Origin: an uncultured delta proteobacterium | GTDB taxonomy: Bacteria > Desulfobacterota > Binatia > UBA9968 | Direction: 5' to 3' | Assembly: GCA_963755715.1 (NCBI GenBank) | Contig: CAVWLW010000024.1 | Coordinates: 128,001-192,000 of the forward strand | DNA length: 64,000 nt | Part shown: piece after piece, positions 18,487-26,398 of the stretch | How the letters are laid out: every line of letters begins with the position of its first letter | How positions within the stretch are numbered: the stretch's first letter is position 1 | Position numbers and translations under genes: made by a program | Notes under the pieces: model-generated | What the model saw: the letters and a program-made list of their open reading frames with translations, nothing else | The model's database searches: none | Told to the model about the DNA's origin: nothing

Positions 18487-19077
18487 GTGGCGCCCCTGTC
18501 AAAGAGCGGCGCCGGCCGGCCCCATCGTGAAATCATTCTTGGCATCGATCCAGGATCCATCCATACGGGCTGGGGACTGATCGAGACCGCCGGTAACGCG
18601 CTCCGCCACGTTGCGCATGGCACCGTCAGCCCCGCCAATTCGATCGCTCTGGGGGCGCGTTTGAGCGAGATCTATCGCGGCCTGCAAGAGATCATGGACC
18701 GGTATCAGCCCGCCACGGTAAGCATCGAAAAGGTTTTTTTTTCGCGTAACGTGCAAAGCGCTCTCAAGCTCGGTCAGGCGCGCGGCGTGGCTTTGCTGGC
18801 GGCGGCGCAAAATCAAGTAAGCCTGGCCGAGTACTCGGCCGCGGAAATAAAGGTCGCCGTGGTTGGCTATGGCCAGGCGACCAAAGAACAGGTGCAAAAA
18901 ATGGTCAACGTGCTGCTCGGTTTACGCGGTCCGATGCGGGCCGACGCGGCTGATGCGCTGGCGGTGGCGATTTGCCACATTCATCGGCGGACATTTCAGA
19001 ACTTGGTGGTTCAGTCGTTAAACGGGCGGGCCAAAGCAGCCAGTTGGCGCAACTATCTCGACACGCCGCGCCGCTGA
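18487..19077 (+). CDS. ruvC: Holliday junction resolvase RuvC
   Basis: ILGIDPG, KLGQARG, DAADALAVAICH. Confidence 0.95.
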   Translation: MAPLSKSGAGRPHREIILGIDPGSIHTGWGLIETAGNALRHVAHGTVSPANSIALGARLSEIYRGLQEIMDRYQPATVSIEKVFFSRNVQSALKLGQARGVALLAAAQNQVSLAEYSAAEIKVAVVGYGQATKEQVQKMVNVLLGLRGPMRADAADALAVAICHIHRRTFQNLVVQSLNGRAKAASWRNYLDTPRR

Positions 19078-19122
19078 GGGTTGCGATGAAAGACGTTCGG
19101 TTGGCGCATTCGAAATCCCGAC

Positions 19123-19716
19123 GTGATCGCGCAAATTAGCGGCACTTTAGCCCAGAAGATTCCCGGCGAAGTCATCGTCGACGTCGGCGGCGTGGGCTAT
19201 CAGGTATTGATTCCGCTAAACGTTTTTTATCAGTTACCGGAAATCGGCGCACCGCTCAGCTTACAGATTCACACCCATGTGCGCGAAGACGCGTTGCAGC
19301 TTTTCGGTTTTCAAGACTTCGCCGAAAAGCAGATGTTTTTGCTGTTGATCAATGTGTCCGGTATTGGGCCGAAATTAGCCATCAATATTTTATCCGGCAT
19401 CGCGGCGACGGAATTGAAACGCGCCTTGAGAGAGGGCGATCAGAGTCGTCTAGTCGCGATTCCAGGGGTCGGCCGCAAACTGGCGGAGCGTCTGATCGTC
19501 GAGCTAAAGGATCGGATTGCTGCTCTGGCGCCAAGCGCCACTGAGAGCGCGAGGCTCGAAGGGGGCTCGCAAATTTTACTCGATGCGGTATCGGCGCTGG
19601 TCAATCTGGGATATAAAAGACCCGACGCCGAAAAAATGGTCCGCGAGGTTCTCAAGCGCGGCGAGCAATCCTTGGAAACCGTATTGAAGGAAAGCCTGCG
19701 GCATTTGAGTCCGTGA
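19123..19716 (+). CDS. ruvA: Holliday junction branch migration protein RuvA
   Basis: [26 protein letters not shown]. Confidence 0.95.
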
Positions 19717-19750
19717 TGGGTTCGATGATCGACGATGCCATTTTACTACC

Positions 19751-20776
<1,026 letters not shown>

Positions 20777-20821
20777 TGGTCTTGAGGCCGTGGCTCGCAA
20801 ACTGATGCAAGTGGTAGGCTC

Positions 20822-21034
20822 ATGGATGGATTTGGCAAGACGCTGATCTATCTCGGATTGCTGTTGGTGATCGTCGGAGTGATCTTTACACTAGCCGGCA
20901 AGGTGCCCTGGTTCGGACATCTGCCGGGCGACATTTCCATTCAAAAAGAACGCTTTACGTTCTATTTTCCGATCACCACTTGTATCGTGATCAGCATCAT
21001 CATTTCGCTTGTCCTTTATTTTTTTCGCAGGTAG
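20822..21034 (+). CDS. DUF2905 small membrane protein
   Basis: GHLPGDI, FYFPITT motifs. Confidence 0.85.
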   Translation: MDGFGKTLIYLGLLLVIVGVIFTLAGKVPWFGHLPGDISIQKERFTFYFPITTCIVISIIISLVLYFFRR

Positions 21035-21078
21035 AATTTTTTCAATCCGCTACGCCTCGAATCAGGGACCGAATCCGA

Positions 21079-23308
21079 ATGGAAGCAGCGAATCCGACAA
21101 AATTCGTCGAAGAAAGCCTCAAAGTCGAGGAGGCCAAACGGCGGCGCCGCGAAGGAATCGTCATTCTCATCACGGCTTTGATGGTCGCCGCGCTGATTTT
21201 TTTCGAAGTTCAACTGCCCGACGTCACACCGGAATATTCATTAGGAAGCAACATCGTTTTTTTTCTGCTGATCAACGTCAATATTATTTTGCTCGGCTTG
21301 CTGGTTTTTTTAGTCGTGCGCAACCTCGTCAAGCTGGTCGTCGAGCGCAGACGCCACATGCTGGGGGCCCGTCTGCAAGCGCGGCTGGTTTTGGCTTTTG
21401 TCGGACTTTCGCTCGTTCCCAGCGTATTACTTTTCATCATTGCCGGTGGTTTGCTGCGGCGCTCAGTGGATCGCTGGTTCGATTCTAAAGTCGAGAGCGC
21501 GCTGCAAGGTTCGTTGGAAATCGGTCAGACCTATTACCAAAATTCCGCCAACAATGCGCTTTTTTATGCGCGCCAGCTTAGCGATCAGGATCACCGCGGA
21601 AGGGCTCGTCGATCCGTCGCGACTTGCCGAGCTGAAAAAGTTCGTCGAAGCCAAGCAGCGCGAATACAACCTCGGCACGGTCGAGCTTTTTTCACCCGAC
21701 GGCCAGCCGTTCGTCGTCGCCTTCAATCAGCAAGTGCCGACGGGCGTCACGATTAAACCGGAAAGCGAGTTTCTGAACCGGGCGCTGCGCGGCCTCGAGG
21801 TGACGCGCACGCAAGCTTTCGGCGAGGGCGACGTGATTCGCGGCGGCGTACCGATTTACGCGCGCGACAAGCGTATTCTCGGCGTGGTCGTCGTCGATTA
21901 TTATGTGCCGAAAAGCATTTCGAAACGGGCGATTCAAATATCCCAGTCCTATGAACAATACAAATATTTGACGTTTCTAAAAGCGCCGGTCAAAAATAGC
22001 TACCTCCTGACCATGCTTTTGATCACGCTTGTGATCATTTTCGCGGCTACTTGGTGCGGCATCTATCTATCCAAAGGAATCACGGTGCCGATTCAAAAAC
22101 TCGCCGAGGGGACGCATCAGGTCGCCCTGGGAAACTGGGATTATAAAATCGAGGCGGGCGGCGACGACGAAATCGGCGTGTTGATGAATTCTTTCAATCA
22201 AATGACCGGAGATCTGAAGCAAATCAAGCTCGAGCTCGAACGGCGCGGCAAAGTGGTGCAAACCCTCATGGCGAATATCGCGGCCGGAGTGGTATCGATC
22301 GACCCGTCCGGCAAGGTTACGACCTGGAACAAAGCCGCCGAGCAGTTGCTCGGAGTGGCGGCGGAGCGTGCCTTGGGAAAATCCTACGCCGAGGTTTTTC
22401 GCGCCGAGCCCTTGCGCGGCATTCGCGAGATCGTCGACAGCGTCAAGGGCGGCGAGAGCATCGAGCGGGAAATCAAGCTTTCCCTACAAGAGCAATTGCG
22501 CAGCGTGGTGCTGAGCGCCGCGACGCTGCACGATGACGACGGCTCGATTCTCGGCATCATGCTTTTTCTCGAGGACATCACGCAGATTCAAAGAGTTCAG
22601 AGGATGGAGGCTTGGCGCGAGGTCGCTCGCCGTATCGCCCACGAAATTAAAAATCCCTTGACGCCGATCCAGTTGTCGGCGCAGCGCTTGCGCAAGCGCT
22701 ACGCGAATATCCTGGAAGAGGACGGCGGGATCTTGGACAAGTGCACGACGACGATCATCCAGCAGGTCGACGAGCTCAAGAACTTGGTCAACGAATTTTC
22801 CCAGTTCGCGCGCCTGCCGTCGGCGCGACCGATGCCCAATGACTTAAATCAGATCGTCAACGAAGCGCTGGTGCTTTTCAAGGAAGGACATCACGGCATC
22901 CAGTTTCAATTCGGCGCTGGAGATCTGCCGCCTGTGGAGCTCGACCGCGACCAGATGAAACGGGTGCTGATGAATCTGCTCGACAACGCGGTCGCCGCGG
23001 TCGAGGGGCGGGGGGAGATCAAGCTCGCGACCAGTTACGAGCGCGCCCGCGGCATGGTAACGCTGGAAGTGGCGGACAACGGCTGCGGCCTTGCGCCTGA
23101 ACTCAGAACAAAGATTTTCGAGCCCTATTTTTCTACCAAAGAAAACGGCACGGGTTTGGGATTGACGATTGTCAGCCAGATCGTTGAAGATCATCGCGGC
23201 TATATTCGCGCCTGGCCCAACGATCCGCAGGGAACTCGCATCACCATCGAGTTGCCGGCGCACCGCGACGCAGGGGTTCAGATTTTGGCGAAAAGTGCGG
23301 TACACTAG
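21079..23308 (+). CDS. ntrY: NtrY-family sensor histidine kinase (TM-HAMP-PAS-HisKA-HATPase), frameshift near 21589
   Basis: AWREVARRIAHEIKNPLTPIQLSA H-box, NLLDNA, DNGCG, GTGLGL; one extra base at cag-g-atc joins ORFs 20980 and 21398. Confidence 0.88.
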
Positions 23309-23342
23309 GAAAAGTCGAGAGGACGGGGTGGAAGAACTGGCG

Positions 23343-23786
23343 ATGCCCAAAACAATTTTAGTGGTCGACGATGAGGACGGCGTGCGCGATTCGGTGCGCG
23401 AAGTCTTGAACGACGAAGGTTACCGGGTGGTCGACACGGCGGACGGCACCCGGGTCCTCGACATCATCAAAAGCGAACGGCCCGACCTCGTTCTGCTCGA
23501 CATCTGGATGCCGCAGATAGACGGTATCGGCTTGCTTAAAGAGATCAAGATCCAAGAGCCCGACATCAACGTCGTAATGGTTTCCGGTCACGGCAATATT
23601 CATACCGCCGTTACCGCGACCAAATTCGGCGCCTTCGATTTCATCGAGAAGCCGGTGTCCTTGGACGGGCTCTTGCTGACGGTGCAGCGCGCGCTGGGCG
23701 AACTGCCTCGCGCCACCGGGCCGGAGCAAAACGGCGGTCGAAGCCGGAAAGCGCGCTCGGCAAGGGCAACGGCTGCGCGCCGTTGA
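23343..23786 (+). CDS. NtrX-like receiver domain, probably the N-terminus of a REC-LpxC fusion
   Basis: ILVVDDE, LLDIWMP (phospho-Asp), SGHG, DFIEKP; no AAA+/HTH follows. Confidence 0.85.
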   Translation: MPKTILVVDDEDGVRDSVREVLNDEGYRVVDTADGTRVLDIIKSERPDLVLLDIWMPQIDGIGLLKEIKIQEPDINVVMVSGHGNIHTAVTATKFGAFDFIEKPVSLDGLLLTVQRALGELPRATGPEQNGGRSRKARSARATAARR

Positions 23787-24631
23787 GCGCCGCCGGTGCG
23801 CAAACGATCAAACAGCGAACTTTGAAAAAGAGCGTGGTGCTTTCCGGCCAGGGGCTTCATTCCGGGGTAAAAACCGGCTTGATTCTCCATCCGCTGCCGG
23901 CTAACAGCGGCATATTATTTACCGGGATTTCCGGCGACGTGACCGTTCCGGCCCATCTCGATTACGTCGGCTCGACGGGCTACGCGACTTCGTTGCGCTC
24001 GAAAGGATTTGCCGTCGGCACCGTTGAACACTTTCTCGCCGTCCTGCACAGCTACGGTGTCACCAATTTGCTCGCCAAGGTACAAAGTGAGGTGCCGATC
24101 ATGGATGGGTCGGCGGAAGAGTTTTGCCAGGCCCTCGAAGAGGCCGGCATCGAAGAGCAAGCCGGAGAGTGTTTGGAAATCGTCATTGATCGGCCTTACG
24201 AGGTCCGCGCTAAGGGTGAAGAGGCAATTCGCATCGAGCCCGCCGATACATTTTCCGTGCACTATGTTTTGCGCTATCCCGAACCGGTGGGCGAGCAGGA
24301 ACACCGCTACACCTATCTCGGTCCGGAGACGTTCAAGGCGGAGATCGCGCCAGCGCGGACCTTTGGTTTCTTGCGCGACATCGAAAAACTCCAGACCATG
24401 GGACTGGTCGGCGGCGGCAAGCTCAACAATTGCATCATCATCGGCGACGATAAGATCCTCAATACCGAGTTGCGCTTCGCCGACGAGTTCGCTCGCCACA
24501 AGATCCTCGATATCCTCGGCGATCTTTACCTGCTCGGGAGACCGATGCGAGGGGCGGTATCCGCCGTTATGACCGGGCATTCGGACAATATCGCTTTGTT
24601 GCGACAGATCCGCGAAGGCATGAACCTCTAA
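23783..24631 (+). CDS. lpxC: UDP-3-O-acyl-N-acetylglucosamine deacetylase LpxC
   Basis: QRTL, GQGLHSG, TVEH, EVPIMDGS, IAPARTFG, RHKILDILGD, GH. Confidence 0.93.
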   Translation: MSAAGAQTIKQRTLKKSVVLSGQGLHSGVKTGLILHPLPANSGILFTGISGDVTVPAHLDYVGSTGYATSLRSKGFAVGTVEHFLAVLHSYGVTNLLAKVQSEVPIMDGSAEEFCQALEEAGIEEQAGECLEIVIDRPYEVRAKGEEAIRIEPADTFSVHYVLRYPEPVGEQEHRYTYLGPETFKAEIAPARTFGFLRDIEKLQTMGLVGGGKLNNCIIIGDDKILNTELRFADEFARHKILDILGDLYLLGRPMRGAVSAVMTGHSDNIALLRQIREGMNL

Positions 24632-24700
24632 GCGCAAGCCGGAGGTTACAAAAGAATCGCCGTTACTTTTCTCGGATCCGCGTCGACACAAGGTTTACTA

Positions 24701-25150
24701 ATGGAATCCCAGGCCAATTTTCCACGACTTTTCACCGTCATCGAGGCGAACGACCTGCTGCCGAAGCTTCGACCGTTGGTCGAGCAGGTTCTCGAAAATA
24801 TTCGCCGTTTAAAGGGCGCCAGCGAATCGGTGATTCGCCGAGAGGGACTCGATCCGGAAGCGCCGAACCTGATGAATCGGCTGCGCGACGACGGCGAGAT
24901 CGCAAAGTTGATTGGCCAGGTAAAAGGCTGCGTCGATGAGATCAATGGCTATGGATGCATTTGTAAAGGCGTGGAGCAGGGATTGATCGACTTTCCTTGT
25001 CTGCTCGGCGCGGAAGTGGTCTTCCTCTGTTGGCAAATCGGCGAGCCCAGCATCGGTTATTGGCACCGAATCGAAGACGGCTTTGCCGGCCGCAAGCCTC
25101 TGCTGGACGACGAAACCTCAGATCCCAACGATAAAATGTCCTATCACTGA
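24701..25150 (+). CDS. DUF2203 domain protein
   Basis: FTVIEANDLLP, GLIDFP, LCWQIGE, WH..GFAGRKP. Confidence 0.85.
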   Translation: MESQANFPRLFTVIEANDLLPKLRPLVEQVLENIRRLKGASESVIRREGLDPEAPNLMNRLRDDGEIAKLIGQVKGCVDEINGYGCICKGVEQGLIDFPCLLGAEVVFLCWQIGEPSIGYWHRIEDGFAGRKPLLDDETSDPNDKMSYH

Positions 25151-25225
25151 GCGTGTCGAAAATACCGTCAAGTTCGTCCGACTGGTTGATACTATTTTGC
25201 TCTATTCGAATAAATCGAGGCGATC

Positions 25226-26398
25226 ATGACCCCTGGGCTGCGCCGGGTCGAGACCGCGCTGTCAGCGCAAATCAAAGAGGCCGCTCAACGATTGGGCTTC
25301 GAACTGGTCGGCATTTCGCCGATGCGTCCTGCGCCGCATGAACAATCCTTTGCCCAGTGGCTGCGCGAGGGGTTGGCCGGCAATCTAGATTACATGCAAC
25401 GCACCGAGTCGTTGCGGCGCGATCCGCGCGAGCTCGTGCCGTGGGCGGTCTCGATTATTTCAGTAGGGATGAACTATTACAGCGGTTATTCCCGTCCGGT
25501 CGATTCTTCGGAGCCACGCGGATGGATCTCGCGCTACGCCTGGGGCGACGACTATCACAACCTCATGAAGGGCAAGCTGGAGGCGCTGCTTGAGAGTATC
25601 GGCCAATTCCATGACGGCAACATTCAAGGAAAAGCTTTCGTCGATTCGGGTCCGGTTTTGGAGCGAGACTTCGCCGGTATCGCCGGGCTCGGCTGGATCG
25701 GTAAAAATACCCACCTTATTTCGCCGAAGAAAGGCTCGTGGTTTTTCTTGGGCGAATTGTTCGTCGATTTGCCACTCGCTTACGATCGGCCGATTCGCGA
25801 TCGTTGCGGTCGCTGCGATTTGTGTTTGAAAGCCTGCCCGACCGGCGCCTTTGTCGGGCCCTACGTGCTGGATGCGCGGCGCTGCATCTCGTATTTGACG
25901 ATCGAGCTCAAGGATTGGATGCCGCGTTCGCTGCGACCGCTTGTTGGCAATCACATCTTCGGCTGCGATATCTGCCAGGAAGTCTGTCCATATAATGTGA
26001 AAGCGCTCCCGACTGCGGAAATCGCGTTTCAGCCGCGTTCGGGCCTGCACGCGCCGGAGCTGATCGCGTTTTTATCGCTCAGTGAAGCCGAGTTCCGCCA
26101 ACGCTTTCGCGCCAGTCCGATTTTACGCGCCAAGCGGCGCGGCTTTTTACGCAATGTCGCGGTGGCGCTCGGTAATCTAAAAGCGCTCGATGCGGTGCCG
26201 GCCTTGATTCGATCTCTCGACGACGAGGAATCTGTGGTGCGCGGGCACGTGGCGTGGGCTTTAGGCCAAATCGGCGCACAGACGGCGCTCGACCCTTTGC
26301 GCCGCCGGTTACGCGCAGAGAACGATGCCGATGTGCAAGAGGAACTACGGGAGGCGATTGGTATTTTGTCCGGCGACAGCGCGGATTTGCCGGTTTAG
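25226..26398 (+). CDS. queG: Epoxyqueuosine reductase QueG
   Basis: SRYAWGDDYH, GWIGKN, CGRCDLCLKACPT, GCDICQEVCP, HEAT tail. Confidence 0.95.
   Translation: MTPGLRRVETALSAQIKEAAQRLGFELVGISPMRPAPHEQSFAQWLREGLAGNLDYMQRTESLRRDPRELVPWAVSIISVGMNYYSGYSRPVDSSEPRGWISRYAWGDDYHNLMKGKLEALLESIGQFHDGNIQGKAFVDSGPVLERDFAGIAGLGWIGKNTHLISPKKGSWFFLGELFVDLPLAYDRPIRDRCGRCDLCLKACPTGAFVGPYVLDARRCISYLTIELKDWMPRSLRPLVGNHIFGCDICQEVCPYNVKALPTAEIAFQPRSGLHAPELIAFLSLSEAEFRQRFRASPILRAKRRGFLRNVAVALGNLKALDAVPALIRSLDDEESVVRGHVAWALGQIGAQTALDPLRRRLRAENDADVQEELREAIGILSGDSADLPV

Follow-up and report, generated by a model that had tools for sequence, protein, structure and literature searches.

The window analyzed here is a 64,000-nucleotide stretch of DNA from an uncultured delta proteobacterium of the class Binatia (NCBI GenBank assembly GCA_963755715.1, contig CAVWLW010000024.1, positions 128,001 to 192,000 of the forward strand). 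Directly downstream of a gene for an NtrY-like sensor histidine kinase, it contains two open reading frames (ORFs), one for a receiver domain (REC) and one for LpxC. Comparison with related sequences indicates that these ORFs are one natural gene, encoding a REC-linker-LpxC protein of roughly 430 amino acids (aa), and that a one-base assembly error created the stop between them. By its domain composition, REC-LpxC is a response regulator that has the committed enzyme of lipid A synthesis as its output, which places it within the known enzyme-output regulators.

A single gene interrupted by an assembly error

As read in the window, the receiver ORF runs from an ATG at 23343 to an apparent stop codon (TGA, 23784-23786), and the LpxC ORF extends from a TTG at 23783 to 24631, with a frame that is open upstream to before 23600, just as an earlier, sequence-only reading of this DNA had described it. 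The joined gene (+ strand) comprises (i) an NtrX-type receiver with its phospho-acceptor aspartate in the motif LLDIWMP (23343..23708; Response_reg, PF00072, 110.4 bits against a cut-off of 30.2, E 6.9e-32), (ii) a low-complexity linker (23709..23812), in which alignments and public contigs locate a one-base deletion, the false stop and the false start, and (iii) a catalytically intact LpxC domain (23813..24631; PF03331, 281.8 bits against a cut-off of 27, E 7.8e-84), whose stop codon lies at 24629-24631.

The corresponding DNA of a close relative (G001, whose receiver is 97% identical) forms one ORF of 434 aa, and in a second relative (G012) REC and LpxC share one ORF of 431 aa. DNA alignment with G001 revealed that the window lacks a single G after position 23776 (context GGCTGC^GCGCC). 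The stretch is present in 20 public sequencing runs from 14 studies (soil, rhizosphere, mine), and contigs of all four runs examined (three DNA and one metatranscriptome, from four studies) carry this G. One of the DNA-run contigs differs from the window in only a single other letter over 656 bases, and the metatranscriptome contig covers 23340-24071, across the REC-LpxC junction. In 15 of 18 genomes of the same genus the receiver lies within a frame of at least 428 aa, while contig ends cut the other three; the stop after the receiver was seen only in the window's genome.

The sequence-only reading had favored a single gene of this size, which one added base would restore, and had named as the alternative two translationally coupled genes, i.e. 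a stand-alone receiver and an LpxC translated from the TTG at 23783, linked through a TTGA overlap. A gene truly split in this strain agrees with the window sequence itself, and an LpxC beginning at 23783 would start near the usual LpxC N-terminus. However, the extra G of G001 and of all four runs (including the near-identical 656-base contig) speaks against it, as do the long receiver frames found throughout the genus wherever contig ends do not intervene, and a second frameshift in the adjacent ntrY gene, which is what would be expected of an error-prone assembly. We therefore regard a genuine split as very improbable. The TTGA overlap is an artefact of the one-base deletion in the assembly and, because the split is an artefact, the REC-LpxC finding is better than at first sight. 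The added base foreseen by the sequence-only reading exists, although not at the predicted site (near 23755), which lies about 21 bases upstream of the actual one.

The kinase gene (ntrY-like, 21079..23308, + strand) is split over two ORFs (20980-21756 and 21398-23308). A relative (L031) has an intact kinase of 743 aa that aligns with 21079-21582 in one frame and with 21560-23299 in another, which places the frameshift near 21560-21582 and bears out the suspicion that the window contains further single-base errors. Taken together, the breaks in ntrY and lpxC suggest that such errors arose in the assembly. Pfam analysis identified NtrY_N (E 9.7e-10) in the first piece, and HAMP, PAS, HisKA and HATPase_c in the second, so that all five NtrY-type domains were recovered across the two ORFs. 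This domain order, including NtrY_N, is shared with the NtrY proteins of Brucella, R. sphaeroides and C. crescentus. With the kinase gene ending at 23308 and the receiver starting at 23343, the receiver is encoded directly after ntrY, as is typical of NtrX, and the same order is found in the loci of relatives.

The LpxC domain

LpxC, a drug target, catalyzes the committed step of lipopolysaccharide synthesis, which is tightly balanced; the enzyme is known to be controlled by proteolysis (FtsH/LapB, Lon) and at the level of transcription. The roles of its zinc ligands and of its catalytic Glu and His are known from work on the E. coli and A. aeolicus enzymes. The intact G001 protein matches the LpxC model TIGR00325 with 246.4 bits (cut-off 187.25). 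Conservation was assessed in 45 aligned sequences of the short form (REC-linker-LpxC), which extend down to 31% identity with the G001 protein. The LpxC residues E229, H230, H386, K387, D390, D394 and H413 (motifs TxEH, HKxxD, D and GH) are kept in all 45, and the complete set of motifs is also present in the window, in agreement with the sequence-only reading.

The window's genome (93.6% complete) gave a single LpxC match; a second, unfused lpxC was sought in it and not found. The same genome also holds LpxA (two matches) and LpxB. In a sample of the class (81 genomes, 49 genera), every genome contained exactly one LpxC locus, with an LpxC frame of at least 411 aa in 78 of them; the exceptions were the window itself, a locus at a contig end and a gene with multiple breaks. 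The last of these (G357:C5:524273-525078) is the sole lpxC of its genome and is broken into at least three frames, probably by further assembly frameshifts. Judged from this gene content, REC-LpxC serves as the cell's LpxC within the lipid A pathway.

No FabA/FabZ domain follows LpxC at the C-terminus, and the protein stops right after the LpxC domain. It ends approximately 6 residues past its alignment to solved LpxC chains, which run on for approximately 25 residues. The FtsH degron of E. coli LpxC sits in a C-terminal tail, and the fused LpxC may lack a tail of this kind. LapB was not found in the window's genome: the zinc-ribbon profile PF18073 matched only a RadA-like protein, and the best score with the LapB equivalog NF008757 was 46.9 bits against a cut-off of 363, a model so narrow that among 14 control genomes only E. 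coli passes it.

Seven LpxC positions set the fused clade apart (V166, T178, G179, H236, K246, C262 and T411 in G001 numbering; approx. 23840-24580 of the window). Across 32 fused LpxC domains each of them reaches a conservation of at least 90%, and at most 15% of 69 unfused domains share it; at the position of K246, the unfused enzymes have Glu or Asp. These residues are candidate contact or regulatory positions.

Distribution and architecture of the fusion

The 120 best protein matches among 5.8 billion sequences all contain both LpxC and Response_reg (415-449 aa). They are annotated only as LpxC and carry metagenome-assembled genome labels such as Candidatus Binatia. In a protein atlas, both domains occurred together in 17 clusters, labeled Binatota and Myxococcota. 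The architecture is thus already in public databases, where it has gone unremarked.

We also searched 300 other genomes of the phylum. A full-length match to the fused protein in one frame was found in 41, and in a further 34 the LpxC part, 50-61% identical, was embedded in a frame of 450-840 aa, so that about 75 of the 300 carry the fusion. The rest have mostly an ordinary LpxC (36-43% identity, frames of approx. 290-430 aa), and 13 gave no match to the fused protein at E 1e-30. All seven genomes of one genus (g79; 99-100% complete) lacked a match at this threshold, which indicates that LpxC there is either very divergent or absent.

In the 20 fusion loci that were fetched, REC and LpxC invariably lie in one frame, and in five of these a Sigma54_activat and an AAA_lid_14 domain stand between them (the long form). 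Both forms recurred among representatives of clusters at 50% identity (53 of the best 150 were scanned, chosen mainly for a length of at least 400 aa): 22 were REC-LpxC and 15 REC-AAA+-LpxC, and the rest were fragments, multi-receiver proteins or LpxC-FabA. Homologs of the window's protein are therefore fused, and not separate genes, which answers the question that the sequence-only reading had raised about related genomes. REC-LpxC is widespread in uncultured soil lineages.

When relatives were searched for with the family alignment, the matches listed were mostly unfused LpxC proteins of many phyla, and the only fusions among them were L034 (short) and L035 (long). Two Nitrospira matches with apparently full coverage (L058 and L088) were rejected as fusions, as each consists of a separate NarL-type regulator gene beside an unfused lpxC. 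We also rejected a kinase-REC-LpxC hybrid, which long frames in L014-L016 (1007-1423 aa) had suggested; REC and LpxC were the sole Pfam domains found there, and the great length of these frames is due to chance in G+C-rich DNA, because the kinase is encoded in another frame.

LpxC-FabZ is the other known natural LpxC fusion, and was seen among the representatives (P0206, P0220, P0248, P0259 and P0262). Its partner is a metabolic enzyme placed at the C-terminus, whereas the partner in REC-LpxC is a signaling domain placed at the N-terminus.

The receiver and its descent from NtrX

The acidic pocket, the phospho-acceptor Asp and the Ser/Thr and Lys switch residues are all present in the window's receiver. 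Among the 45 short-form sequences, D10, S81 and K103 are each kept in 45 and D53 in 44. The best regulator model in NCBIfam is NtrX (NF051870, 133.5 bits), followed by AtoC (94.4 bits), and the closest solved receivers are 4d6x (E 2e-29) and 5m7n (E 1.2e-28), which we take to be Brucella NtrX. The view that the receiver is NtrX-like with its key residues intact is thus upheld, and the protein shares with NtrX both its receiver family and its closest solved relatives. It is not a full NtrX: the Pfam scan detected neither AAA+ nor helix-turn-helix (HTH) domains in the window's protein, as the sequence-only reading had noted, and 133.5 bits is far below the equivalog cut-off of 600.

The long forms have an NtrX-like body. 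They match positions 3-452 of the 452 in the NtrX model, with scores (251-351 bits) that are also under the cut-off. All 21 of them lack the GAFTGA loop and have another residue in place of the Walker B Glu, and the HTH is retained in some and lost in others. The middle of the long forms is a decaying NtrX body. This pattern of matches indicates that the receiver descends from NtrX, and that in the long form an entire NtrX has been joined to LpxC.

A tree was constructed from 101 LpxC domains, leaving out nine loci without TxEH in the chosen frame and the partial L005. Its unfused set was derived from a pattern scan and excludes the sampled phylum genomes, although a few rows have labels such as Thermodesulfobacteriota. 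The 32 fused domains (26 short, six long) were split from the 69 unfused ones by a branch with a Shimodaira-Hasegawa-like approximate likelihood ratio (SH-aLRT) value of 99, which is consistent with a single origin of the fusion. Long and short forms were interleaved without support. Given the decay of the AAA+ and HTH module, passage from long to short by loss is more plausible than passage by gain, although the order itself has no support in the tree.

Unfused relatives of the gene pair occur within the phylum. In three of five unfused genomes, the best NtrX-like match was found on the same strand as lpxC, 2.7-3.1 kb away, and Pfam gave the order lpxC, DUF4390, ntrY (with NtrY_N) and regulator (L120 990-6282, L121 864-6159, L122 885-5831). 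The regulators of these clusters consist of REC and a full sigma-54 AAA+ domain; two of the three gave an HTH_8 match, and two of the three have an intact GAFTGA. In L026 and L119, too, DUF4390 stands before the kinase.

A two-component system that targets lpxC is known from D. vulgaris (DVU2931-DVU2934), for which the available part of the report gives lpxC as the single mapped target of the regulator DVU2934, and in S. fumaroxidans lpxC lies directly upstream of the operon orthologous to this system (PMC3333781). The clusters found here would fit this result by arrangement and target. As far as the available text goes, control in D. vulgaris is transcriptional and exerted by separate genes, in contrast to the fused protein described here. 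If the three arrangements are related in this way, they would form a natural series in which a regulator merges with its target: first an operon, then NtrX-LpxC, and then REC-LpxC.

Pairing with an NtrY-like kinase

In 20 of 31 loci, the gene directly before the fused one encodes an NtrY-like kinase. This adjacency was observed in 11 of 11 loci of the genus (10 of 10 without locus L007 of genome G005), and also in the family, in the class and in three further families, so that the synteny on which the sequence-only reading had relied extends well beyond the window. Five genomes without an adjacent kinase each contain exactly one full-length NtrY-like kinase elsewhere, and in the four that were readable no regulator gene was found beside it. 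This distribution suggests that the NtrY-like kinase is the conserved partner of the receiver, and the arrangement of the fused gene next to a likely sensor kinase suggests direct signal control of outer-membrane synthesis.

Possible control of LpxC by phosphorylation

We propose that the membrane NtrY-like kinase encoded directly upstream would phosphorylate the conserved receiver Asp, and that the phosphorylation state of the receiver would set the amount of LpxC activity in the cell. A possible model is CheB, a methylesterase whose autoinhibition is relieved by phosphorylation. As in REC-LpxC, a single chain combines a receiver at the N-terminus, a flexible linker and a hydrolase at the C-terminus; in contrast, CheB is a signaling enzyme, whereas the zinc deacetylase that forms the output here belongs to an essential biosynthetic pathway. 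By analogy, an unphosphorylated receiver might restrain LpxC and phosphorylation release it, and the architecture would fit CheB-like packing of the receiver on the active site. The activating sign was chosen because the unfused ancestors in the phylum resemble sigma-54 activators that share an operon with lpxC.

We infer the phosphotransfer, any effect on LpxC and the sign of that effect; transfer of phosphate from kinase to receiver is suggested by two things, gene adjacency and one-to-one occurrence. Some form of phospho-control of LpxC nevertheless appears somewhat probable, and the exact CheB-like form and sign are less so. More tentatively still, in the whole class and in about a quarter of the sampled phylum genomes, transcriptional or proteolytic control of lipid A synthesis might have been replaced by a phospho-switch from NtrY to the LpxC receiver, gating the committed enzyme within seconds. 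The NtrX-LpxC long forms would then be intermediates, and the ties between NtrYX and the envelope elsewhere would be explained.

An AlphaFold2 model of the whole protein (mean predicted local distance difference test, pLDDT, 88.1; predicted template modeling score, pTM, 0.85) is confident for both domains. The linker, which in relatives is 25-80 aa long, is predicted to be disordered (pLDDT <50 at residues 123-150), in line with its earlier description as low-complexity. The pTM looks high for two unplaced domains, and the scores alone give no basis for an interface. A complex prediction of receiver residues 1-122 with LpxC residues 151-429 (45-row alignments, without controls) gave a score of 0.01, the mark being 0.32, and would count neither for nor against docking. 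No solved structure spans both receiver and LpxC.

Several observations weigh against phospho-control of the kind proposed. The kinase is not beside the fused gene in 11 of the 31 loci. One cluster representative (P0145) has Asn at the phospho-acceptor position with the other pocket residues kept; such a variant may work constitutively or independently of phosphorylation. Because the linker is long, unconserved and, by prediction, disordered, rigid coupling cannot be read from the sequence. The failure to find LapB is weak evidence, because NF008757 was passed only by E. coli. Finally, the sign of regulation is a guess, as the alphaproteobacterial precedent points to repression and the sigma-54 ancestry in the phylum to activation.

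The receiver may instead govern the lifetime of LpxC, acting as a phosphorylation-dependent degron or adaptor that delivers the fused enzyme to a protease and replaces the FtsH/LapB route. Single-domain regulators that act as degradation adaptors are known (CpdR and RssB), and the fused LpxC, which may be devoid of an FtsH-degron type of tail, comes from a genome in which LapB was not found. LpxC is also controlled mainly by proteolysis in the organisms studied, according to a review (PMC12444477). However, the sequence gives no pointer to a protease partner, and similar NtrX/NtrC receivers are known for dimerization switches rather than as adaptors. Control of lifetime is an unlikely alternative.

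A further alternative is that the fusion is real but that no signal passes from receiver to enzyme. The receiver could be a phosphate sink, or an NtrX leftover retained for co-expression, or LpxC could be the input, its substrate occupancy feeding back to NtrY. A disordered and variable linker would suit such an arrangement, and the decay of AAA+ and HTH within the family shows that ancestral parts can become dispensable. By the same token, a receiver without function should have decayed like the AAA+ module, whereas the phospho-acceptor pocket is kept in 44-45 of 45 sequences down to 31% identity, and each of the 81 class genomes has the fusion as its sole LpxC locus. We consider this explanation rather improbable.

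Relation to known systems

Alphaproteobacterial NtrYX affects the envelope and lpxC expression. Loss of NtrYX in R. sphaeroides raised the lpxC transcript 8.8-fold (PMC7240162), and in alphaproteobacteria NtrYX lowers lpxC expression indirectly (PMC7240162, PMC12444477). In that group NtrX acts on transcription and reaches lpxC indirectly, whereas here the receiver is covalently joined to LpxC. The enterobacterial FtsH/LapB route has the same regulatory target, namely the amount of active LpxC at the committed step. It is unlike the present case in that no LapB was found in the window's genome and the fused LpxC seemingly has no C-terminal extension.

A literature search, which did not cover supplements or the 2006 survey of response-regulator outputs, found no published description of a REC-LpxC fusion. 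The words receiver, fusion and fused are absent from a 2025 review of lipid A regulation (PMC12444477), and a preprint that names both LpxC and Response_reg mentions LpxC-FabA only. The sequence-only reading had likewise regarded such an enzyme-output two-component system as not known to be characterized. If the proposal is true, REC-LpxC would be the first two-component control acting directly on LpxC, in the sole LpxC of many soil bacteria, and it would give a concrete biochemical output to the poorly understood NtrYX family.

Gene neighborhood

The order of genes in the window (18487-20776 and 24701-26398 around the kinase and fused genes) is ruvC, ruvA, ruvB, DUF2905, ntrY, REC-lpxC, DUF2203 and a likely queG. 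The conserved upstream neighbor ruvB (19751..20776, + strand, identified as an ORF) is followed by a gene for a small membrane protein (DUF2905, 20822..21034, + strand; PF11146, E 3.3e-25). RuvB or RuvA is also encoded upstream of the kinase in the distant relatives L031, L033, L014 and L119, which indicates that the neighborhood is old. Downstream lies the DUF2203 gene (24701..25150, + strand; PF09969, E 6.9e-32), which is likewise found downstream in L003 and L031.

A scan of 20700-25300 for promoters and terminators was uninformative: three promoter-like sites were detected against 2.0 expected, and no terminator-like site was present between ntrY and the receiver.

A different regulator family adjoins the same enzyme in two Nitrospiraceae genomes, where a NarL-type regulator gene (receiver and LuxR-type HTH, recognized by eye) lies directly upstream of an ordinary unfused lpxC (L058 3758-5929, L088 3950-5785).

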